Shown piece after piece: positions 1 through 62,616 of a stretch of DNA of 64,000 nt. A program made the translations under genes and the position numbers. Position 1 is the stretch's first letter, and each line of letters starts with the position of its first letter. The notes under the pieces are model-generated. The model ran no database searches. It saw only the letters and a list, made by a program, of their open reading frames with translations, and was not told the origin of the DNA. The stretch comes from Escherichia phage ECO71P1, in the sequence record OP172789; one strand, given 5' to 3'.

Positions 1-97
1 GTATAAATATAAGTTTAGTATAAGTATGAGGATGTAGAAAAAATTAATTTAAATTAATTCAAAATGGAGTTAATTGTTTTTTCAAAGTTGTATAAAG

Positions 98-132
98 TAT
101 AGCGGCGACGCGTATCATCCGTATCATCCGTA
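98..132 (+). repeat. iteron block A: TATAGCGGCGACG followed by CGTATCATC CGTATCATC CGTA
   Basis: Tandem 9-bp unit read directly; 40/42 identical to 52178-52216. Confidence 0.8.
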
Positions 133-289
133 TGAGTGTACCATTGAACCCAGTCGCGGCGCACCATAGAAGTGTGTGGAGTGAACTACGGATAGGTCCA
201 AATCTTACGTCATTATACGCTTAAATTCTATGCGTAAGGTTAGCCAGCTAACTATATCTCCTTTTTAATTTCAAGCGGCAATCCCATAG

Positions 290-510
290 ACGGCGCAGCC
301 TACAGACCCACACACCACGGTACACGCCCCAAAACCTAGTTATTCCCTCTCCAATCCCACAGCACCACAGTACAATATTCTTCCAAATTCGCACACATAT
401 TCAAGACACACAAATCACGTCACAATCCTCACGCCAAACAAACCTCTAATAAATTTACACAAATCAATCGCTTTATCCGATAATAAAGACTCACAAACAA
501 CAAGCAAACA
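290..510 (+). other. G-depleted CA-rich non-coding tract
   Basis: About 220 nt with very few G on the plus strand; no ORF of 60 aa or more in any frame. Confidence 0.6.
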
Positions 511-530
511 AAAAGGGCCAATCGGCCCTC
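508..530 (-). terminator. rho-independent terminator (GGGCC GATT GGCCC plus T5 on minus strand)
   Basis: Hairpin 515-528 followed on the minus strand by UUUUU. Confidence 0.55.
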
Positions 531-546
531 TTAACATTAATCACTA

Positions 547-999
547 TTAAAATATAAAATTCTTCACTCCTAGCCTTTTAAATTCTTTCCTTAAAATTAT
601 ATTAAACTTCTTCAATTTAGTTTTATTCATCCTTAGCGGATTATAGGTGAACACCTTTTCTATTACTTCCTCGCTCATTTTTGAGCGCATATTAGTTGCG
701 TAATAGTTCTTGAACATATTAATAAGGTGATTGGATTCCAGCTTAAGCTCAATCACTTCTTCCGATTCATCAAGCTCAAGCAATCCTTTTTGCGTAAGAA
801 TATCTCTCAATATATTCTGACACTTCTTGCAATCACCTTTGCCTAAAAGCGAGTCGATATAATCGCCGCTGACGCGCTCATCACCGAAATACGTTGCGCG
901 ACCACAAAGGCTTTGCACTTCTCCTTCGTCAAAGTAATGCGCACGATGTCCCCACTTCGGTATGGCCCAACCAGCGGCGATAAGCCGTTTACCCATCAC
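547..999 (-). CDS. hypothetical protein (150 aa)
   Basis: Long ORF at the distal end of the minus-strand early block; hairpin plus T-tract follows on the minus strand at 508-530. Confidence 0.5.
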   Translation of the reverse strand: MMGKRLIAAGWAIPKWGHRAHYFDEGEVQSLCGRATYFGDERVSGDYIDSLLGKGDCKKCQNILRDILTQKGLLELDESEEVIELKLESNHLINMFKNYYATNMRSKMSEEVIEKVFTYNPLRMNKTKLKKFNIILRKEFKRLGVKNFIF

Positions 1000-1592
1000 C
1001 CCTCCTTAACGACCCGATAAGCAATGATGTCTGAACCATAGCCAAGCAATGTTCTATCCCAACCGATGCAGTCAGAAAATATGTCTTTAGTGATAATGCC
1101 ATCTCGATATTTAACGTCTACCCGTTTCCCAGGTGCTGGATTTTCACCACCAAACCAACCGTTCCAAGCAACATTGTCATTGCTCTTAACCACCCGATAA
1201 GCAGCTATGTCACTGCCTTTGAGCGCTCCTATGTGACCCCAGTAAAGATGGTCAGAAAGTCTTGATAAAACTTTATCAACTCCATCGCGCAGCTTGTATT
1301 CAACCATCTTACCAGGCACCGGATTCTCTCCACCAAACCACACGTTCCACGCTTCTTCCTTCGGCGCATCATCCACGCCTATATTAGCAACAACGTCATG
1401 TAACTGCTTAACGAGCGCCGACGCATCACGGACCTGTGAGCGTAATGCAACCAACTCGCGTTGCGCTTCACTATATTTCTCTTCCAGCGCGGCATAGTCC
1501 TCATATTCAACGTAGCCGCCTTCATTATCCTTTACAACTTCGCAAGTGCAAGCGTGCTGCGTGCAATAATCAACATCATAACGTTGTATCAT
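996..1592 (-). CDS. hypothetical protein with two tandem copies of a ~45-aa W-x-GGENP-x-PGK ... (D)IIAYRVV module
   Basis: ORF track; internal duplication visible in translation (WNVWFGGENPVPGK...GSDIAAYRVV and WNGWFGGENPAPGK...GSDIIAYRVV); 4-nt overlap with neighbour. Confidence 0.55.
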   Translation of the reverse strand: MIQRYDVDYCTQHACTCEVVKDNEGGYVEYEDYAALEEKYSEAQRELVALRSQVRDASALVKQLHDVVANIGVDDAPKEEAWNVWFGGENPVPGKMVEYKLRDGVDKVLSRLSDHLYWGHIGALKGSDIAAYRVVKSNDNVAWNGWFGGENPAPGKRVDVKYRDGIITKDIFSDCIGWDRTLLGYGSDIIAYRVVKEG

Positions 1593-2079
1593 TTAACTTC
1601 TCCAAAATTTCGATAGCGATTTGTGTTTGCTTCTCAAGCGCGATACGCAACATGTCAATTTGCAAGTCACGATGGGCCAGTTCAGCGGCGATGTCCGACT
1701 TGCTGTAAAGACCTTCATGCGTCATGGCATAGATGTGGCGCGTATAATAGCCGCCCTCATCGAGTTGCTCGATGTCACGTTGCCCGACTGCATATTGTTT
1801 ATCGGCTGTTTGCGCCGCTTCTTGGATTCTTATTTCTGCCACTTCCTTTAATGAATCGCTTGATGCTGGTCTGTTCTCTTCGAACATATTCCCATCACCA
1901 ATTTGCGCGCACCAAATCGAATCACCAGAAAAGCGCCACTGGCCGCCCAAGTCATCCCATGCAGGCTTTTCTTCATAAGCCCAGATCATCCCGTTAGAAT
2001 CGCGCGCAACGAATCGTGCGCGAGCGTCTATTTCGTATTCTTTACCTTCGAACTTGATGCGCTGTCTATTGTTAGTCAT
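1576..2079 (-). CDS. hypothetical protein (167 aa)
   Basis: ORF track; co-directional compact packing. Confidence 0.5.
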   Translation of the reverse strand: MTNNRQRIKFEGKEYEIDARARFVARDSNGMIWAYEEKPAWDDLGGQWRFSGDSIWCAQIGDGNMFEENRPASSDSLKEVAEIRIQEAAQTADKQYAVGQRDIEQLDEGGYYTRHIYAMTHEGLYSKSDIAAELAHRDLQIDMLRIALEKQTQIAIEILEKLNDTTL

Positions 2080-2408
2080 GATGCATCCTTAGTTGGATAG
2101 AATTTAGGGTTGTTCTTATAGAATGCCTTGAGCCATGCCTTTGCTTCAGCGATGCTGCTGAACTCTTCCTTGGAGAGTCCGGTGCGGTCCTCGCCTGCGA
2201 CCTTGAAATGGATGCGCACCTTGAGCCGAAGGTTGGTTGCTCTCGCGTAGTGGCCTTCATAGCCGTGATGGTCGAGGCTTACGATGGCGGCAAGCAGCTC
2301 GCAATCTTCTTTATCGGGATTGCCGCTGTAACAAGTCGGCCAGCCGCGACGTTGGAATGACCTGTATTGGCCTGTTGGCTCAGGGTCCACGTACCATTTC
2401 AATTTCAT
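2076..2408 (-). CDS. hypothetical protein (110 aa)
   Basis: ORF track; 4-nt overlaps with both neighbours. Confidence 0.5.
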   Translation of the reverse strand: MKLKWYVDPEPTGQYRSFQRRGWPTCYSGNPDKEDCELLAAIVSLDHHGYEGHYARATNLRLKVRIHFKVAGEDRTGLSKEEFSSIAEAKAWLKAFYKNNPKFYPTKDAS

Positions 2409-2746
2409 TTAACCTTCTCCAATTGGAATCTTGCTTCTGGAAAGCCTGCGACAAACATGTCACGACCCTCGACATCACGCTTCACGAACCAACGCATCCC
2501 GTTGACGACCGTGAAGACAATTTGCCTTCCATCAATAATAAGTCCTTTCGCCTCATAAAGCAAATAAGTCTGACCGACTTTGAAGCTTAACATATCCTTG
2601 CTTGTGCTGGTGCACTTGAGCCGCCACTTGGTGAGATTGGATTCGCTTGCCTCAATGTCAACAACCTTACCGCGCAGCGGCGATGTGCGTTGAAGCTCTT
2701 TCATCTGCTCATCGAACGTGAGTTCACGGACTTCTTGCTCTTCCAT
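2405..2746 (-). CDS. hypothetical protein (113 aa)
   Basis: ORF track; overlapping start/stop with neighbours. Confidence 0.5.
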   Translation of the reverse strand: MEEQEVRELTFDEQMKELQRTSPLRGKVVDIEASESNLTKWRLKCTSTSKDMLSFKVGQTYLLYEAKGLIIDGRQIVFTVVNGMRWFVKRDVEGRDMFVAGFPEARFQLEKVK

Positions 2747-3246
2747 TATTCCTCCACGACGCGATAGGCAATGATGTCATCTCCGCTTCCAACGTGCTTC
2801 CATCTTACTGATTGTGAGCCGTAACACCCGACGGACTTTATCCCGCTTCTCATTTTGTACTTGATAATCTTCCCAGGCACCGGATTCTCGCCTCCAGCCC
2901 ATTCAATCCAACCTTCATGAGACTCTTCGGACTTCTTCAAGTGATCGTACTTTTCACCAATGTGGGCAATTGGTTGGTTGCTGTTGTAAAAGAATCCAAG
3001 CGCAACATCGTAGCACGGATGACTATGAGAAAGACAGATGTCATCGCACCAAAGCTCCATGGTGCGCGACTTAAGGGTCATGATATTGGTATACCACTCG
3101 ATGGTGTAGTGGTCGTTAAGGTTGCCGACGATATAGAAGTTGCGACAAAAGTGCGCAGCATCGTCGGACTTCTCGCGGCGATAGCTTTTGATTGCGCCAG
3201 CCTTTACAGCCATTTCCAGTACTGCTTCGAGTTGTTCGATTTTCAT
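2746..3246 (-). CDS. hypothetical protein carrying one copy of the W-x-GGENP-x-PGK ... IIAYRVV module at its C-terminus
   Basis: Translation ends ...WIEWAGGENPVPGKIIKYKMRSG...GSGDDIIAYRVVEE, paralogous to the repeats in 996-1592. Confidence 0.55.
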   Translation of the reverse strand: MKIEQLEAVLEMAVKAGAIKSYRREKSDDAAHFCRNFYIVGNLNDHYTIEWYTNIMTLKSRTMELWCDDICLSHSHPCYDVALGFFYNSNQPIAHIGEKYDHLKKSEESHEGWIEWAGGENPVPGKIIKYKMRSGIKSVGCYGSQSVRWKHVGSGDDIIAYRVVEE

Positions 3247-3479
3247 TTCTTTACTCCGAGTTCAATTTGATAGCCGATTGACAATTCATTTTCGCCGATG
3301 TTGAATGCATCGACTGGCTGCGACATCACCGCTTTTAAATATACCTTCTTGCGTCGCTTCGCCTTGTACAAACAACGGTCGCCGCTGCGGTTGTAAATAT
3401 TAAGCCAGGTGCGTTTGCTAATCTTATACGGCACATGCGGCTTGATGAATAATAAACGGGCCTTAAGATTTGATGTCAT
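3243..3479 (-). CDS. hypothetical protein (78 aa)
   Basis: ORF track; overlaps neighbours by 4 nt. Confidence 0.4.
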   Translation of the reverse strand: MTSNLKARLLFIKPHVPYKISKRTWLNIYNRSGDRCLYKAKRRKKVYLKAVMSQPVDAFNIGENELSIGYQIELGVKK

Positions 3480-3771
3480 AATATTTACCTCCAGCCATAT
3501 TCTCTTTAATTTCTTTTAATGCCGTGCGACCTGCTTTTGTCATCACCACGGATGAATAGCGCGTCGGGTCTTTCTCTCCTGGCACCGCCCAATCAACAAG
3601 GCCCAACCGGAATAAGACAGGGATTGATGGCGCATTGATGTCGTGGAAAAGTGATGGCCGCTTTTCATAAGCCTTCTTGCGGTCGCCGCGCAGCATGTAT
3701 GGCGTTCCATCTCCCATCCTGTACAATGTTTGAATTTGCGCTAGGCTTAGTCTCATTGTTGTCTTCTCCAA
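3463..3771 (-). CDS. hypothetical protein (102 aa)
   Basis: ORF track. Confidence 0.45.
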   Translation of the reverse strand: MEKTTMRLSLAQIQTLYRMGDGTPYMLRGDRKKAYEKRPSLFHDINAPSIPVLFRLGLVDWAVPGEKDPTRYSSVVMTKAGRTALKEIKENMAGGKYYDIKS

Positions 3772-3938
3772 ACTGCGTGTAATGTTTTCTGGTCGAACTT
3801 GGACAGCGTTTCACGCTCCGATGCTTTAAGGAATCGCGTGCCAAAGAACAGCATCCCTTGCGGCGTTTTAACGAGAGACACGCCTTTGTTACGGTAAAAG
3901 CTTACCAAGGCTGATGCGTTGTGGACTTCGGTAATCAT
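3753..3938 (-). CDS. hypothetical small protein (start moved to internal ATG after AAGGAG RBS)
   Basis: The annotated 3998 start lies inside a sigma70-like promoter; AAGGAG at 3947-3952 precedes ATG at 3938. Confidence 0.4.
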   Translation of the reverse strand: MITEVHNASALVSFYRNKGVSLVKTPQGMLFFGTRFLKASERETLSKFDQKTLHAVWRRQQ

Positions 3939-8418: not shown

Positions 8419-10088
8419 CAGAATTCATCCTTATCTCTTCCTAAAGAACGTTTGCGTTCAATAACCTTCTTCAAGAATTCAATATCTTCAGGGTCAGATT
8501 CATCGCGGATAAGATACGCCAAAATAGTCATCAGGTCAGAAATGTATTCCCCTGCTTCATTCTTAATCAGCGGCGTAAAGTAACCACGCTGGTTGCGATA
8601 GGTTGCAGGCTCAAATCCAAGCTTCGACATGTGCGGCGCAAGGGTACGTGAGAAAGGCGACTTGCCGCACTTAGCTCTGAAGCCCATAGCGATTGCACCA
8701 CTAGTGATGTGCCAGCGTCCGCTGTGATGTCGGTCATAAGGCGCGGTGATGACGACTTCAACAAGGTCGTTGTCGACCATCTCGTCACGGATAACGCCGC
8801 GAGCACGTTCCATTTCGTTCTTGCTGAACTCAGTAAGCATGCGAGACGTTTCACCAACAAAAGCGTTGTAACCTGCTTCGCCGTGCTTCTCCATCCACGC
8901 AGCACACTCAGCCATCAACTGCCAAACATCTTCTTTCAAAGTGGAAAGGTCAGCTTGGAAGTCTTTCGACCAGTTCGGTTGCCCGTCCTTGTCTGCGAGT
9001 TGGCCAACAAAGATAGGATACACACGACGGTTGCCCGTATCGTCACGCTGCATGCCTGCGTATTCGTTGCCGTCCATGATAGCAATCCACTGGCGCGGTT
9101 TAACCTGCGTATCTTCAAATTTGAAGTCCAGGTCATCTTCCGTCTTAGTCAGGAATGCTTTCATGTTTTCGATGTCGGCCTTTTTAAAGCCTGTCATCTC
9201 GCCAACGTTCGCGATAATTGAGCGACCCGTAATAGCTCGCAAGAACGGGTTGAAGTTCTGCGCGGCCAAGTTCAACGGAATCGGTGTTGCGTGGCGGTCG
9301 TTCATAATAGCTTCGCAAAGCAGCTTACTGAAATAACTCTTCCCTGCGTTCTGGCCGCCGATGAGCGCAATGGAGATTGGCGCTTGACAGCCAGGGTTGG
9401 TCAGGCGGTTATAGAGCGATAGCCAAAAATACACACCGATTTGTCGGTTTAACTCTGTATCGAACGGTCGGAATAGCTCGATAAGGTATTTCTCAATGCG
9501 CGCAGTACCGTCCCATTCAGGCAGCTTCTTGTAGAAGAAGTCCATCAGGTCGTCGCGCTGATAACGCATGGCCCATTCCTTATAGGATTGAGCGACCTGA
9601 CGTGAGTTTGGGTTGGACAGGCCTGCTGCGTCGACAGCGGCAACTATCTCTGTGACTTCCAACGTCCGGTCGGTGAATGTTTCTCCGCGATGGTCGACTA
9701 AGCGTCCACGAAAAGTATCTTTGTGAGGGAATGGGACAATGCCGCTTCCCTTATCAAACAACGCGTCGAAAACCGCATAACGGTTCATGTCACTCGTCCG
9801 GTCCGCCTGAAGAACAAAATCATCTTTCGTCGGTTTGTAGTGAGGGAACTTGATTACCTGAAGTGAGGCGAGCAAACGTGCTCTTTCAACCAAGTCTTCT
9901 TCACCGTAGCACTCCATGCGCTCTGCATCTTTCTCAACAGCCTTATGCTGGAGGCTGATTTTAGCTCTGGTGCCTTGCTGCTCTGCCGCTTGCATCTCTT
10001 CTGAAACACCAGCGTCTTGAATTTCGTCAAAGGTTGCACCAAATTCATCACCTGTATCCTCTGGAAGATTGTCATGTTCAATTGACAT
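8418..10088 (-). CDS. DNA primase-helicase-like P-loop NTPase (VirE/D5 family-like)
   Basis: Walker A GGQNAGKS in the C-terminal half of a 556-aa protein; architecture typical of phage replicative primase-helicases. Confidence 0.7.
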   Translation of the reverse strand: MSIEHDNLPEDTGDEFGATFDEIQDAGVSEEMQAAEQQGTRAKISLQHKAVEKDAERMECYGEEDLVERARLLASLQVIKFPHYKPTKDDFVLQADRTSDMNRYAVFDALFDKGSGIVPFPHKDTFRGRLVDHRGETFTDRTLEVTEIVAAVDAAGLSNPNSRQVAQSYKEWAMRYQRDDLMDFFYKKLPEWDGTARIEKYLIELFRPFDTELNRQIGVYFWLSLYNRLTNPGCQAPISIALIGGQNAGKSYFSKLLCEAIMNDRHATPIPLNLAAQNFNPFLRAITGRSIIANVGEMTGFKKADIENMKAFLTKTEDDLDFKFEDTQVKPRQWIAIMDGNEYAGMQRDDTGNRRVYPIFVGQLADKDGQPNWSKDFQADLSTLKEDVWQLMAECAAWMEKHGEAGYNAFVGETSRMLTEFSKNEMERARGVIRDEMVDNDLVEVVITAPYDRHHSGRWHITSGAIAMGFRAKCGKSPFSRTLAPHMSKLGFEPATYRNQRGYFTPLIKNEAGEYISDLMTILAYLIRDESDPEDIEFLKKVIERKRSLGRDKDEF

Positions 10089-10146
10089 TTAATCCTCCTG
10101 ATACGGCTTTGTTATATTGTTGCATGGATATATCCTTTCAGGGTGC

Positions 10147-10174
10147 GGTAAATAAACGCCAGAAATCTGGCGTT
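10147..10174 (-). terminator. rho-independent terminator (8-bp stem AACGCCAG/CTGGCGTT, 4-nt loop, T-tract on minus strand)
   Basis: Perfect inverted repeat 10155-10174 followed on the minus strand by UAUUUACC. Confidence 0.55.
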
Positions 10175-10224
10175 GTATATTAATATAGTAAAACTCAGTT
10201 TAAAGCAATATAACTGGTGAACTA

Positions 10225-51887: not shown

Positions 51888-51994
51888 CCACCCTCAAATA
51901 AGTATTGTGTATTATATCTAATGAAAAAAACTTAGGCAAACAATAATTATGGTTTGAATATGTATAACAACCGATATAGCCGCGCCTTAATTAG

Positions 51995-52300
51995 TGTGAT
52001 ACGGATGATACGGATAAAATGAGGCGTATTTTTATCCGTATCGGTGTATAAGCCGCGCTATCACTGGTGTGCTACGGATGATACGGATGATACGGATACT
52101 TTTCATATATAAGAGTTTATAAAAAAATAAAATTAAATTAGATATATAATTTTAAATTAATTTATTTGAATTCCTATAAAGTATCGCGGCAACGCGTATC
52201 ATCCGTATCATCCGTAAGATTCTTTTGAAAACAACTACTTACTTGATACGGATGATACGTCATTATACGCGTAAAATCCTGCGGCAATCCATTGCCAGGC
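51995..52300. repeat. iteron region B: five clusters of the 9-bp unit CGTATCATC/GATGATACG in both orientations plus GCCGCG-containing boxes and an AT-rich tract
   Basis: Copies at 51998-52016 (inverted), 52033-52044, 52073-52100 (inverted, three units), 52195-52216 (direct), 52245-52261 (inverted). Confidence 0.8.
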
Positions 52301-59281: not shown

Positions 59282-59502
59282 TGAGACTATCAATCAAAGA
59301 GCGGGCGAAGCGGCCCAAAAGGAGTGAGCCAAAGGCCAAATACGCATGCATCGGCGGACCATTCGACGGTCAAGCGATGTGGCTTTCAAAATCTAATCCA
59401 TCGACGGTTGAGTTTAGCCTTCATGGAATGCGCGGCAGATACCTGCTAAATAGAGAAACAAGTGGCAGTACATTTGTGGAGTGGAAAGAAAATGGCAAAT
59501 GA
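59281..59502 (+). CDS. hypothetical basic protein (73 aa)
   Basis: ORF track; overlap coupling. Confidence 0.45.
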   Translation: MRLSIKERAKRPKRSEPKAKYACIGGPFDGQAMWLSKSNPSTVEFSLHGMRGRYLLNRETSGSTFVEWKENGK

Positions 59503-59725
59503 ATTGACTTTAACAGTACCAAAAGAAGTGCTAGACAAGGCATATGCAGATTCTGTAAAAGAATTAGCTGGAGTGCTTGGAATTGAAAATGAATTCAACG
59601 TTCAGCTGCAATTCCTTAAGGATACTCTTCAAATCAAAGAGAATAGAGAAGCTGGAAGTGGTGCGCCTTTAGCTTTAGCAATCCTCTATGCGGGACTTGT
59701 TTTGCAATCTGGAGATGAACTGTGA
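59492..59725 (+). CDS. hypothetical protein (about 77 aa)
   Basis: ORF track, start adjusted to internal ATG. Confidence 0.4.
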   Translation: MANELTLTVPKEVLDKAYADSVKELAGVLGIENEFNVQLQFLKDTLQIKENREAGSGAPLALAILYAGLVLQSGDEL

Positions 59726-59920
59726 ATCGTTGGTGCAGTTGGAAGCTTAAACGACTCGCCTGGGCCAATGCCGCCAATTCTGCTGGACCAATCGCTGCTG
59801 GTGTTGGGTCGATATGGGATGGTGAGGGCCGTTGGGACTCGCTGTGTGGCACGCGCCTATTCTTTCGCGTAAAATAATATTTGCCCTTCCCGATATGGGA
59901 AGGGAATTAAAGAGGTTATC

Positions 59921-60262
59921 ATGAACAACACTTTATCACAACTGCTAATCTGGACAATCGCTGCTATCATTGGCACCGTTATTATGATGTCAAGCGCAAA
60001 GGCTGAAACGGATATTTGCGGCAGGCTTATTTCTGAGAATGGCGAGATTTATTATGGCAACTCAAAAGGCGATTATATATCACCTGAAGTCTGCGCTCAG
60101 AAGAAAGCAGAAATGCAAAAGCAGTATCATGAAGATCAATCCATATCTCAAGCCGCGCTGATTGAATTAAGTATATCAGCCATCATCTTTCTAATCGTTT
60201 TTATGCTCATTATTAAACCAAATAATGACAGCAACCGTCATATTCCTCTCAAAAGAAATTAA
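59921..60262 (+). CDS. exported/membrane protein (N-terminal signal-like and C-terminal TM segment)
   Basis: Hydrophobic N-terminus ending SSAKAE and C-terminal IIFLIVFMLII segment. Confidence 0.5.
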   Translation: MNNTLSQLLIWTIAAIIGTVIMMSSAKAETDICGRLISENGEIYYGNSKGDYISPEVCAQKKAEMQKQYHEDQSISQAALIELSISAIIFLIVFMLIIKPNNDSNRHIPLKRN

Positions 60263-60300
60263 GGTTATAATACGGTTGTCGACAAAACGAGGACCGTAAA

Positions 60301-62616
60301 ATGCCAAGGCTAATATTCAAAAACAACTTTGAGGTCGCGCTGGCTCAACCAACGACGACTTCAGACACCACAATCACAATTCGCTCAGGGTCGGGCTTTC
60401 CGACCTTGGGCGCAAACGAGCGTGTAGTGGCGACAATCGTCGATGCTGCAACAGGCCTCCAATTCGAAATCGTCACAGTAACAGCCGTTGTTGGAAACGT
60501 CCTGACCGTGCAGCGTGCACAAGAAGGAACTGCAGCGCGTGCGTGGTCGGCTGGTGACATGCTTTCCATTCGAACTACTGCTGCGACACTGACAAATTCT
60601 TTTCGAAACTTCGGGGAAATTCCTAGCGGAATAAATCTTAATGCTTTGACTGGCACTTGGTTTGGCATATATTATCAAACTCAAGATTCAAACGCATCAA
60701 CGACTCTAAATTACCCCATTGCAGTTGGTGGATCACTTGAGGTGTTTACAAGTGGTGCAGGGCAAGAAGGTTGCATCCAAGTTTATAAAGTAAGGAACTC
60801 GGCCAGGTCTTATACCAGGACTTACAATCCACAATCAGGATGGACTAGTTGGAATTCATACAGGATGACTGATGACACCGTGCCTATTCAATTTGGCGGA
60901 ACGGGGCAAACCACAATTCAGGGAATGAAAACAGCTTTTGGATTCGGAACGGTTGCTGATCAGAACATCGTTCCAACTTCAATGGGCGGCACCGGATCAG
61001 GGGATAATGCTCAGGCTTGGCTAAACATCCGTCCACAAGGATCAACACCGCTGGCTGGTGACCCAGTAAACGATTATGATGCCGCGACTAAGCGTTGGGT
61101 TGAGAACTTGGTGAATACAGGCACCGTTGGTCCAAGTATGAACGGTGTTATGAACTATGGCGTCGGTGATTTCCACTTACGGGACAGCCGTGCTTATATT
61201 CAACCTTATGAAGTCGTTTCTGACGGACAATTGTTAAATCGTGCAGACTGGCCTGAGCTTTGGGCTTATGCGCAAATGCTTACCCCTATTGCTGATGCTG
61301 ACTGGCTTGCCGATGCATCCAAGCGCGGCAAATATTCTTTGGGCAACGGAACGACAACATTCCGCGTGCCAGACCGTAACGGCGTCCAAGCAGGGTCCAT
61401 TCCTGGCCTATTTGGTCGAGGTGATGGTGGAGTGTCTTCTTTTGACGGTCGCGTAAGACAAAACGCAGCGCCAAACATAACCGGTTCAGTTGGCACTTCA
61501 ATATCAACGCAATATAACACGGCAGGTAACACAGGGACAGGGGCAATAGTTCCAGCACCTGTTGTTATTCCAGGCCTAAGAGTTGGTCCAGAAGGAGGTA
61601 CAACAAGCCTTAACTATAGGAACGGATTGAACATTGATGCAAGCCTTTCCAATGCTGCTTATGGTCGAGATGGCTCCGCAGAGGTTCGACCTAATGCTTT
61701 TGAAGGCGTTTGGGTGATTCGTGCATCTGGTGGATTTGTCGCGGCGAATACGCAGTGGAGTGTAATTACTGGTGACTCATCCCGTCCATCAACAGGGGTG
61801 ACAACGGATGGCGGTGAAATAATTTCAAGATACAATATTGGAACGGCACAGGAAGCCCAAATGAGCTGGCGCGTTCGCGCTTTAATTGGAGGTACATATT
61901 ATGCTCGCCTTAATGTGTCAAACGCCACAAAAGGCACAACTACTGTATTTGATTTTGATGATACTGGTGCAATGGCTGCTCCTGGCCCAATTTCTGCTGG
62001 TGCTGCTGGTTCAAATTTCAAAAGCACAATAGAAGTAAATAATGTCTCTTATCCAGGACTTTTGTTCAAGCCTACGTACACCAATGGAAACGTGATACCT
62101 GATACTGTTGTTGGAGGGAATACATTCTTTGAGTGCTCATTCATCCAGGGGCAGATATCAGGTGTTCAATTGTATCGTAGGAGGAAAGACGGAAATGCCA
62201 CAGGACAAATAGCGATTTCCTTCCCGACTACTGCCGGAACGATTGCGCTTCAAGGTACATCAGGCATTGAATATAAAAAGGACGTTGTAGATGCAGATGC
62301 CAAGGAAGCGATGGATAGAATCAATTCACAGCGCCTTGTCAATTTCGTTTATAAGGATGATGAGCAAGAGCGTGTGAGATTTGGTATAATCGCTGAAGAA
62401 GCGGAATTGATTGCGCCACAATATATCAAGCACAATCAAGAAAACATTTCTGACATTCTTGATGAAGAAGGAAACAAGATAGGTGAAGAGACTCGTGACA
62501 GACCTTCAGTTGACACAAACCCAATCGTCATGGACTTGATGGGCTGTGTGCAGTATCTCAATAAGCAAATTGAAGATTTGAAGGCAGAGATAGCCGCGCT
62601 AAAGGCAGCAAAATAA
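60301..62616 (+). CDS. tail fibre/tailspike protein with collar-like domain and C-terminal intramolecular chaperone (S74-like) domain
   Basis: Collar-like block DWPELWAYAQ ... TTFRVPDRNG; C-terminal LVNFVYKDDEQERVRFGIIAEEAEL followed by coiled coil. Confidence 0.7.
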   Translation: MPRLIFKNNFEVALAQPTTTSDTTITIRSGSGFPTLGANERVVATIVDAATGLQFEIVTVTAVVGNVLTVQRAQEGTAARAWSAGDMLSIRTTAATLTNSFRNFGEIPSGINLNALTGTWFGIYYQTQDSNASTTLNYPIAVGGSLEVFTSGAGQEGCIQVYKVRNSARSYTRTYNPQSGWTSWNSYRMTDDTVPIQFGGTGQTTIQGMKTAFGFGTVADQNIVPTSMGGTGSGDNAQAWLNIRPQGSTPLAGDPVNDYDAATKRWVENLVNTGTVGPSMNGVMNYGVGDFHLRDSRAYIQPYEVVSDGQLLNRADWPELWAYAQMLTPIADADWLADASKRGKYSLGNGTTTFRVPDRNGVQAGSIPGLFGRGDGGVSSFDGRVRQNAAPNITGSVGTSISTQYNTAGNTGTGAIVPAPVVIPGLRVGPEGGTTSLNYRNGLNIDASLSNAAYGRDGSAEVRPNAFEGVWVIRASGGFVAANTQWSVITGDSSRPSTGVTTDGGEIISRYNIGTAQEAQMSWRVRALIGGTYYARLNVSNATKGTTTVFDFDDTGAMAAPGPISAGAAGSNFKSTIEVNNVSYPGLLFKPTYTNGNVIPDTVVGGNTFFECSFIQGQISGVQLYRRRKDGNATGQIAISFPTTAGTIALQGTSGIEYKKDVVDADAKEAMDRINSQRLVNFVYKDDEQERVRFGIIAEEAELIAPQYIKHNQENISDILDEEGNKIGEETRDRPSVDTNPIVMDLMGCVQYLNKQIEDLKAEIAALKAAK

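Follow-up and report, generated by a model that had tools for sequence, protein, structure and literature searches.

Strand-biased non-coding DNA has been known beside the terminal repeats of phages since T7 (regions SRL and SRR) and again in the iss region of T5, with no function assigned to it. In this study we analysed DNA of this kind in Escherichia phage ECO71P1, namely the G-depleted, A+C-rich tract on the plus strand at positions 290..510 of a stretch of 64,000 nucleotides (sequence record OP172789; the whole stretch is referred to as the window, and coordinates are those of the window unless another phage is named). The window is, by its sequence, a Wifcevirus (ECML-117/WFH-like E. coli myovirus), its first kilobase being 94-96% identical to the E. 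coli Wifcevirus myoviruses ECML-117, WFH, FEC19, kaset, Mansfield and BASEL Bas101. T7 carries beside its left terminal repeat the short-repeat region SRL (Dunn and Studier 1983). Like the tract, SRL is non-coding, lies directly internal to the direct terminal repeat (DTR) and stands beside a promoter-rich, AT-rich region, and the two are close in base composition when both are read away from the repeat (A 37, C 28, T 24 and G 11% for T7 161-400; A 39, C 34, T 18 and G 9% for the tract). SRL differs, however, in being made of about 12 CCTAAAG heptamers that abut a 160-bp terminal repeat, whereas the tract has no unit repeats and is separated from its repeat by 225 bp of conserved boxes. In addition, the relatives of Wifcevirus have a mirror-image second arm, whereas the counterpart at the right end of T7 is unskewed (A70 T63 C56 G50). 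T7 and Wifcevirus belong to unrelated phage families with unrelated terminases, and the two elements share no homology in sequence. The iss region of T5 resembles the Wifcevirus terminus in being about 1 kb of non-coding DNA at the inner edge of a long DTR (10.2 kb), with early small genes in the DTRs of both; it holds TGTGCAAATCCGACA boxes on both sides of the boundary (10219 of T5) and a tract of about 200 nt (10000-10200) with 6-8% C and 32-43% G. In contrast to the tract of this study, that of T5 lies inside the repeat, is G+A-rich instead of the complement of an A+C-rich strand, and has the opposite polarity relative to presumed DNA entry. A T5-like injection stop or two-step transfer was considered as the general role of the element and rejected, since headful-packaging Pbunaviruses, which are without DTR or fixed entry end, share it.

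Three other systems are of relevance for comparison. The leader of the small-terminase (TerS) gene of the Pbunavirus 14-1 (promoter P040, transcription unit TU045) is followed by a TerS 39% identical to that of Wifcevirus and has the same AT-rich centre, CGCGGC boxes and a G-poor arm; unlike the tract, this arm is proximal to TerS and is followed by the gene, a proximal arm that Wifcevirus has lost or never had. The pacL-pacC-pacR region of SPP1 and the cosQ-cosN-cosB region of lambda likewise consist of a cut flanked by recognition elements beside the small-terminase gene, but these elements are sequence-specific and 100-300 bp in length, and no composition-only, strand-asymmetric outer arms have been described for them. 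In the literature searched, no description was found of arms defined by composition only and arranged in mirror symmetry around a terminase site. The Rho utilization (rut) sites, such as that of lambda tR1, share with the tract an excess of C over G, the scarcity of G, an unstructured and untranslated RNA of at least 80 nt without consensus, and the conservation of composition instead of sequence. They differ from the tract in that A is as enriched as C in the tract, in that some Wifcevirus lineages keep the G depletion only, and in that YC dinucleotides (Y, pyrimidine) are raised by just 1.7 standard deviations. On these sequence features the tract would pass for a rut site.

The 220-base G-depleted non-coding stretch is real. 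The tract holds 86 A, 76 C, 40 T and 19 G (C 34%, G 8.6%), and between 301 and 500 the GC skew is -0.66 and the AT skew +0.32; purines make up 47.5%, and the skew is of the keto/amino kind only. Among all 221-nt segments of the 64 kb, the segment 294-514 is the most C+A-rich, with 164 C+A against 110.5 +/- 8.2 (z=6.5; the runner-up has 142). Segments of this length hold 50.3 +/- 8.5 G on average; the minimum of 13 is reached here, and the next lowest count in a non-overlapping segment is 25. With respect to mononucleotide shuffles, CACA is in threefold excess (11 copies against 3.8 +/- 2.0, P=0.003) and ACAA in mild excess (8 against 4.4, P=0.045), while the YC dinucleotides number 36 against 24.8 +/- 6.6, a mild rise. 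The earlier note on this DNA, made from the letters alone, had described a G-depleted, CA-rich tract with reiterated CACA/ACAA and no open reading frame (ORF), with a strand bias unusual for phage intergenic DNA, and the description is correct, the tract being unusual for its genome. The plus strand of the tract contains no ATG, GTG or TTG start codon, no ORF, and no GGAG, GAGG or AGGA resembling a Shine-Dalgarno sequence. The minimum free energy of its RNA, -10.4 kcal/mol against -56.2 +/- 9.4 for 221-nt segments of both strands, makes it the least foldable RNA of the set (rank 1 of 3190), whereas the minus-strand RNA, with -40.8, is ordinary. The bias extends from about 300 to a terminator at 511; G-poor sequence runs on to about 620, but beyond 547 it is the antisense of a gene. 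No array of a short consensus unit was detected in the tract with Tandem Repeats Finder and a repeat finder, which gave only two-copy families of 11-12 nt: CACCACRGTACA at 313 and 363, ACACAAATCA at 408 and 457 (both with a period of about 50 nt), and an 11-nt unit in two copies at 494-515.

The position of the tract relative to the end of the phage genome can be set from three related records. In the WFH record an exact second copy of the first 3701 nt forms the right end, and window 65 is the equivalent of the first base of this repeat; the Ro157lw record begins at that same base; and the record of Mansfield, with one copy of the repeat and an annotated 3673-bp DTR (PhageTerm prediction), ends at window 66. 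Since these three agree, we place the DTR boundary, as the terminase cut, at 65|66. A terminal repeat of about 3.7 kb has been reported for WFC and WFH (Korf et al. 2019, PMC6563267). The tract begins 225 nt from this boundary, within a region (66-546) that is wholly non-coding. This position beside the cut, the most important part of the context, was not recognized in the earlier note. In WFH the cut, at 3701 in locus coordinates, is surrounded by four nested inverted repeats of 23 nt (87% complementary), 20 nt (90%), 17 nt (76%) and 14 nt (93%), of which the midpoints, at 3697-3718, all fall within 17 nt of it. Iterons and CGCGGC-type boxes (66-322) are carried on this dyad. In the window the right-hand arms of the inverted repeats are located at 119-141, 207-226 and 264-280, their partners in WFH being found beyond the cut, towards TerS, and the tract starts with the outermost arm, CCACACACCACGGT at 309-322. 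Across the cut, inside the DTR and starting at a distance of about 360 nt, WFH has a gene for a protein of 157 aa (2868-3341, minus strand), which Mansfield annotates as TerS and which matches PDB 7UXE (E217 TerS) with E=9e-33 in phmmer; 7UXE is the decameric small terminase of the Pbunavirus E217 (PMC9611059). A Pfam search with TerS and the neighbouring genes gave no matches. Taken together with the comparisons below, we consider it very probable that the tract is the outer arm of a non-coding packaging and terminus region (the terminus dyad), in which the strand running 5' to 3' away from the cut is kept nearly free of G and, in this lineage, is also poor in T and rich in A+C, the composition being maintained and the sequence not.

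Within Wifcevirus, the tract changes faster than its surroundings. Among nine close relatives the nucleotide diversity is 0.018 for the iteron and box block (66-289), 0.047 for the adjacent gene and 0.086 for the tract. More distant members (Ro157lw, CWP003, TH35 and RCIP0319) match by megablast only window 1-135, and Bas98 and Bas99 match in part. At the tract itself Ro157lw, CWP003, RCIP0319 and Bas98 are unalignable, yet each has 200-350 nt with 6-10% G between terminus and terminator, and CACCACGG-type motifs recur in these unalignable G-poor stretches. The conservation in relatives that the earlier note had asked after is thus found for the composition, while the primary sequence is poorly conserved. 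The polymorphism in the tract consists of 31 transversions and 26 transitions (ts/tv 0.84, against 2.4 in the gene), the commonest change being A<->C (18/57), although patchy recombination between diverged alleles could inflate the count of transversions. Changes that keep A+C are tolerated in the tract, and the pattern of substitution is the one expected from either selection for A+C content or exchange of alleles that share this content.

As the earlier note had proposed, similar tracts were sought in related phages, and they were found in other Wifcevirus lineages, MyoSmar, Pbunavirus and Gekk3-15. TerS homologues are present in 358 phage records (tblastn), and a change of GC skew from positive to negative upstream of TerS was observed in six distinct lineages (26 IMG/VR loci). 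In the Serratia phage MyoSmar, window 149-170 recurs as an identical box, followed by a G-poor arm at 3700-3890 (G 3-8 and C 17-23 per 50 nt) and then a hairpin, with a mirror-image C-poor arm on the TerS side; MyoSmar also has a 27-nt repeat with a period of 51 nt, and a 26-nt, 92% inverted repeat surrounds the PhageTerm boundary. In the Pbunavirus 14-1, with a genome of about 54% GC, the order is a C-poor arm (C 4-6 per 50 nt), boxes, AT-rich centre, boxes and a G-poor arm (G 1-7 per 50 nt); Gallinipper follows the same plan, with C down to 1-2 per 50 nt, and arms are present also in Pa193 and Ab27. The Pbunavirus arms carry in addition a purine skew of 10 points. In the Aeromonas phage Gekk3-15, a C-poor arm of about 370 nt, an AT-rich centre and a G-poor arm of about 390 nt are arranged likewise, whereas the Burkholderia phage BcepF1 and the most distant metagenomic relatives show little or no arm pattern. 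In all arms, on both sides, the strand running 5' to 3' away from the centre is the G-poor one. The centre of a 25-nt inverted repeat in 14-1 is 18 nt from the start position of the Ab27 record, of which the first nucleotide was set from reads with a fixed end (Essoh et al.). The TerS-distal arm of Pbunavirus is unalignable between species while the proximal arm aligns. Because the tract abuts the terminator of a converging operon, it corresponds by synteny to the distal arm; the proximal arm is lacking in Wifcevirus, as the edge of the dyad is occupied there by the TerS promoters. Carriers of the arms include both DTR and headful packagers of the same TerS family. A feature that recurs beside the packaging sites of Pseudomonas, Serratia and Aeromonas phages is probably functional.

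The detailed organization of the ECO71P1 terminus is as follows. The last 65 bp of the 3.7-kb DTR (1..65) are AT-rich, free of C for 59 nt, and contain the palindrome AATTAATTT/AAATTAATT at 42-59. The unique region starts with an AT-rich segment (66..105) including the box TATAAAGTAT (91-100), which resembles a -10 element facing the tract on the plus strand but is not an established promoter (the consensus sigma70 scan gave no match in this segment), and of which a second copy exists only at 52175. A small AT-rich element of symmetric build (33-84), with the arms TGTAGAAAAAATTAA (33-47) and TTAATTGTTTTTTCA (70-84), encloses the DTR boundary, and a AAAATTAAT..AAATTAAT motif, similar to this element, is found at the centre of the Pbunavirus region. 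The strongly conserved repeat region (103..289) includes GCGGCGACG, 9-nt iterons CGTATCATC in 2.6 copies (111-133), CCCAGTCGCGGCGCACCATAG (149-169), an inverted iteron (187-193) and TACGTCATTATACGC (207-221). Within the tract, the block best conserved in the alignment of the nine close relatives (457..495) contains the 5-1-5 palindrome TTATCCGATAA (473-483), which is perfect, resembles the ATCCGTA iterons and matches a DnaA box at 7/9 positions; it could be a discrete candidate site for protein binding embedded in the arm. The promoter scan gave a weak sigma70-like match, TACACA-17-GATAAT, on the plus strand at 456-484. At 511..532 follows the intrinsic terminator of the converging operon (minus strand), AAGAGGGCCGATTGGCCCTTTT and then a T/G-rich tail, with a poor U tract on the plus strand; WFH annotates its equivalent as a terminator, and Ro157lw and RCIP0319 have equivalents too. 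The outer limit of the non-coding region is formed by the gene with which the converging cluster ends (547..999, minus strand; 150 aa, phrog_2358).

What is kept in the tract is the property of a single strand unable to pair or to be translated, and for this reason we propose its role at the level of RNA; a property of this kind is of consequence to single-stranded RNA or DNA and not to the binding of a duplex. Our proposal, tentative and possible rather than probable, is that the tract is expressed as an unstructured, untranslatable, Rho-sensitive outward transcript. Transcription of the plus strand would leave the AT-rich terminus region outward and yield an RNA with no start codon, no Shine-Dalgarno sequence, essentially no secondary structure and a C/G ratio of about 4; host Rho would find in it an ideal place to load. 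Termination would then occur before outward transcription could enter the converging operon in the antisense direction, which would shield the packaging site from its surroundings, and the hairpin at 511-532 would be the point of pausing or stopping. At the equivalent hairpin of Ro157lw and RCIP0319 there is no U tract on the plus strand, so that only a factor-dependent stop is possible there for a plus-strand transcript. For Wifcevirus, both the promoter facing the tract and the dependence on Rho are inferred. Transcription across an arm is documented for 14-1 by ONT-cappable-seq (Putzeys et al. 2024, Tables S3/S5, bioRxiv version): P040 is a sigma70-type transcription start site at 59399(+) with the AT-rich centre as its upstream 50 nt, TU045 (59399-60626) covers the boxes and then the G-poor arm and extends into gp76, the TerS gene, and a second start site, P041, is at 59807, the end of the arm. 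Since TU045 spans it, the proximal arm of 14-1 is transcribed in the G-poor sense as a leader of about 500 nt.

Several observations stand against the proposal of a Rho-sensitive transcript. For 14-1, no start site is listed that points into the distal arm, which is the syntenic one (Putzeys et al. 2024), and the proximal arm is not a strong terminator, because TU045 reads through it. Sigma70 consensus scans of four Wifcevirus lineages detected no conserved promoter in or facing the tract, while the same scans did recover the tandem TerS promoters, and the minus-strand terminator was also found. Local alignment of the Wifcevirus centre with P040 scored alike in both orientations (z 2.8 and 2.5), and homology of a tract-facing promoter is thus not established. 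The enrichment of YC in the tract is only mild, and the AT-rich Wifcevirus lineages combine a depletion of G with no enrichment of C. For the mirror symmetry about a site of DNA cleavage, a role at the level of DNA is an explanation at least as natural. Of the explanations offered in the earlier note, the unstructured leader or antisense RNA stands as the leading candidate, in view of the least structured RNA of the window and of the 14-1 proximal arm transcribed in the G-poor sense, even though no promoter is demonstrated for this arm.

The role at the level of DNA, which is possible and nearly as likely as the outward transcript, is that of an arm for end processing: after the cut, the 3'-ended strand on each side would be G/T-rich and C-depleted, with the polarity of a telomere, and could serve as substrate of RecA or a phage recombinase (for recombination-dependent replication or the re-joining of concatemer ends), in priming, in regeneration of the DTR, or in protection of the unpackaged end. 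RecA and Rad51 reportedly prefer GT-rich DNA (Tracy and Kowalczykowski 1996/1997). The arms are mirror-symmetric about an experimentally placed cut (the Wifcevirus DTR boundary and the fixed read ends of Ab27) and occur in both DTR and headful packagers of one TerS family; the last 50 nt of the WFH DTR contain 6 C, 16 G and 21 T; in T5 the strand with its 3' end at the right terminus has only 6-8% C over about the last 200 nt of the repeat; and in T7 the terminal repeat ends in 80 GT-rich nt, with SRL poor in G in the direction leading away from the left repeat. On the other hand, the Wifcevirus arm exists on the non-packaged side only, the virion end on the TerS side having no skewed arm; the arms begin 150-300 nt from the cut and not at it; canonical Chi is absent from every Wifcevirus arm despite the E. 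coli host; and in Pbunavirus a Gam(Mu)-like end-binding protein already blocks RecBCD. A wider form of this idea would be that telomere-like arms (150-400 nt, without sequence conservation, with the 3'-ended strand G/T-rich and nearly free of C) flank the cuts of unrelated tailed phages, selected for the handling of single-stranded DNA ends, and would include the Wifcevirus/Pbunavirus/Myosmarvirus/Aeromonas group, T5 and, in part, T7; we think this generalization unlikely to hold. The left end of SP6 is of opposite polarity, which argues against the role in end processing, and as this end does not follow the rule, no universal polarity rule is claimed. Rather unlikely, too, is that the tract acts in the manner of T7 SRL as a low-specificity protein scaffold, a degenerate array of CA-rich sites (CACCACRGTACA and ACACAAATCA, period about 50 bp) that TerS, the terminase or a different DNA-binding protein of the phage would cover by spreading or wrapping, with the specific boxes at 66-322 as the starting point. 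The threefold excess of CACA over the expectation from composition is in line with such an array, as are the repeat spacing of about 50 nt here and the 27-nt repeat at a 51-nt period in MyoSmar, the CACCACGG-type motifs common to otherwise unalignable Wifcevirus lineages, the first 14 nt of the arm being the outermost inverted-repeat arm, the adjacent gene for TerS, a decameric ring, and the T7 CCTAAAG arrays of near-identical composition beside the terminal repeat. Binding of a duplex, however, needs no G-free strand over 200 nt; the tract turns over faster than the neighbouring gene, and it is the boxes at 66-322, not most of the tract, that are conserved in sequence; the repeats are weak, two-copy families often arising by chance; and, according to a review (PMC9611059), binding of DNA by E217 TerS in vitro was not appreciable. 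The protein-binding enhancer suggested in the earlier note fits the neighbouring conserved iteron and box region at 66-322, and fits the fast-evolving tract less well.

Selection need not be involved if the composition is a functionless by-product of mutation bias, in which deamination of an exposed single strand (C->T and A->G) enriches that strand in G+T and its complement in A+C. The polarity is the one expected if 5'->3' resection starting at the cut leaves 3'-ended strands exposed, the skew is of the keto/amino kind only (purines 47.5%) as expected from transitions alone, and the region evolves fast. Nevertheless we judge this improbable: an excess of transitions is predicted, but the ts/tv of the tract is 0.84 against 2.4 in the gene (recombination could inflate the transversions), the Pbunavirus arms have a purine skew of 10 points, CACA is enriched and the internal block 457-495 is conserved, and 200-400 nt of dispensable DNA would have been kept in at least 5 lineages of compact genomes. 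About as improbable is that the tract is the flank of a replication origin, in which the iterons and the AT-rich centre would be the origin and the arms the zones of helicase loading and priming. Iterons of both orientations surround an AT-rich core, the primase-helicase gene is the direct neighbour of the region in Pbunavirus, MyoSmar, BcepF1 and Gekk3-15, and the primase triplets CTG/GTC are impossible on either strand of an arm, one being without G and the other without C. In ECO71P1, however, the primase-helicase homologue, which in other genera adjoins the terminus region, is at 8487-10088, 8 kb from the tract, and for this reason the arm goes with the terminus and not with the primase. 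The polarity of the skew is also terminus-like, the G-rich strand pointing inward; a published analysis of cumulative skew in Pbunavirus puts the candidate origins elsewhere; and a near-identical iteron and AT module at 52 kb has no arm. Avoidance of restriction sites, as raised in the earlier note, is dismissed, being a trivial consequence of G depletion that explains neither the location nor the mirror symmetry.

Two ORFs on the minus strand were examined as genes and rejected. The ORF 415..537 starts within the terminator hairpin, is frameshifted in Mansfield and FEC19 and has no PHROG match; the ORF 248..394 has no Shine-Dalgarno sequence and no PHROG match, and nearly all its substitutions are nonsynonymous. 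Some records carry annotations of these ORFs. The Rfam scan of 1-3000 gave nothing credible, the sole match being mcrA with 16 bits, against a gathering threshold of 57.6, at 156-194 and thus outside the tract. Small coding sequences annotated as 'hypothetical protein' in kaset, Bas98, Bas99 and Bas101 fall in the gap equivalent to window 50-540, and gp007 of MyoSmar (3497..3862) is a 'hypothetical protein' of the same sort. Such coding sequences lie on the G/T-rich strand of the arm, where stop codons are scarce, and extend over the terminator, have no family matches, and are in some cases frameshifted in close relatives; they are probably annotation artefacts of the skewed composition.

The canonical E. 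coli Chi sequence GCTGGTGG is found in the arms of other phages, at 340 and 379 of Pa193, 3175 of 14-1, and 2030 and 2042 of Gekk3-15, on the 3'-ended strand of the G-poor arms and thus readable by RecBCD entering at the terminase cut; in Gekk3-15 the octamers are part of a tandem 12-nt repeat. Neither window 1-600 nor any of the Wifcevirus arms contains Chi, even with one mismatch allowed. A cluster of Chi sites or a decoy for RecBCD was tried as a general explanation and rejected: the orientation fits, but Chi is absent from all arms of the E. coli Wifceviruses, and Pbunavirus has a Gam-like blocker of RecBCD. Where the octamers do occur, in arms of Pbunavirus and Aeromonas phages, their presence may simply follow from the composition.

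As for the neighbouring genes, the TerS gene follows tandem near-consensus sigma70-like promoters, TTGAAC-17-TATAAT and TTGAAT-17-TATAAT (WFH 3376-3422), about 280-320 nt left of window 1 and conserved in every Wifcevirus lineage examined. The placing of the TerS gene within the terminal repeat, behind strong host-type promoters and distant from TerL, is unusual. On the other side, several proteins of the minus-strand early cluster (996-1592 and 2746-3246) carry once or twice each a C-terminal motif, (W)FGGENPxPGK...D(I/D)IAYRVV, which by its sequence suggests a family of paralogous small domains beside the terminus region. A second non-coding dyad was identified at 51890-52300, between the head-protease and head-fibre genes. 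It contains 9 of the 17 ATCCGTA iterons of the 64 kb, in both orientations, around a 68-nt C-free AT tract (52105-52172), together with a 45-nt near-copy of 91-135 (TATAAAGTAT-GCGGCRACG-CGTATCATCCGTATCATCCGTA); it has no G-poor arm and is 99.8-100% identical in 28 Wifcevirus records, far above the terminus region. This dyad may be a shared binding platform for an iteron-binding regulator (for late promoter control?) or a second ori- or pac-like site.

In this study a feature defined by composition alone has been placed precisely relative to an experimentally supported cut and a structurally characterized TerS family. Its mirror-image recurrence in phages of four host genera, with DTR or headful packaging, provides a tractable comparative system, and Wifceviruses of the BASEL collection that infect K-12 exist. 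For annotation, it is of practical concern that automatic annotation yields spurious genes on the GT-rich strand, in which stops are rare, and in rebooting or engineering Wifcevirus or Pbunavirus therapeutic phages the region of about 0.5-1 kb should be treated as a functional unit. If the wider reading is true, telomere-like arms would be a general and previously unrecognized design rule of phage genome ends.

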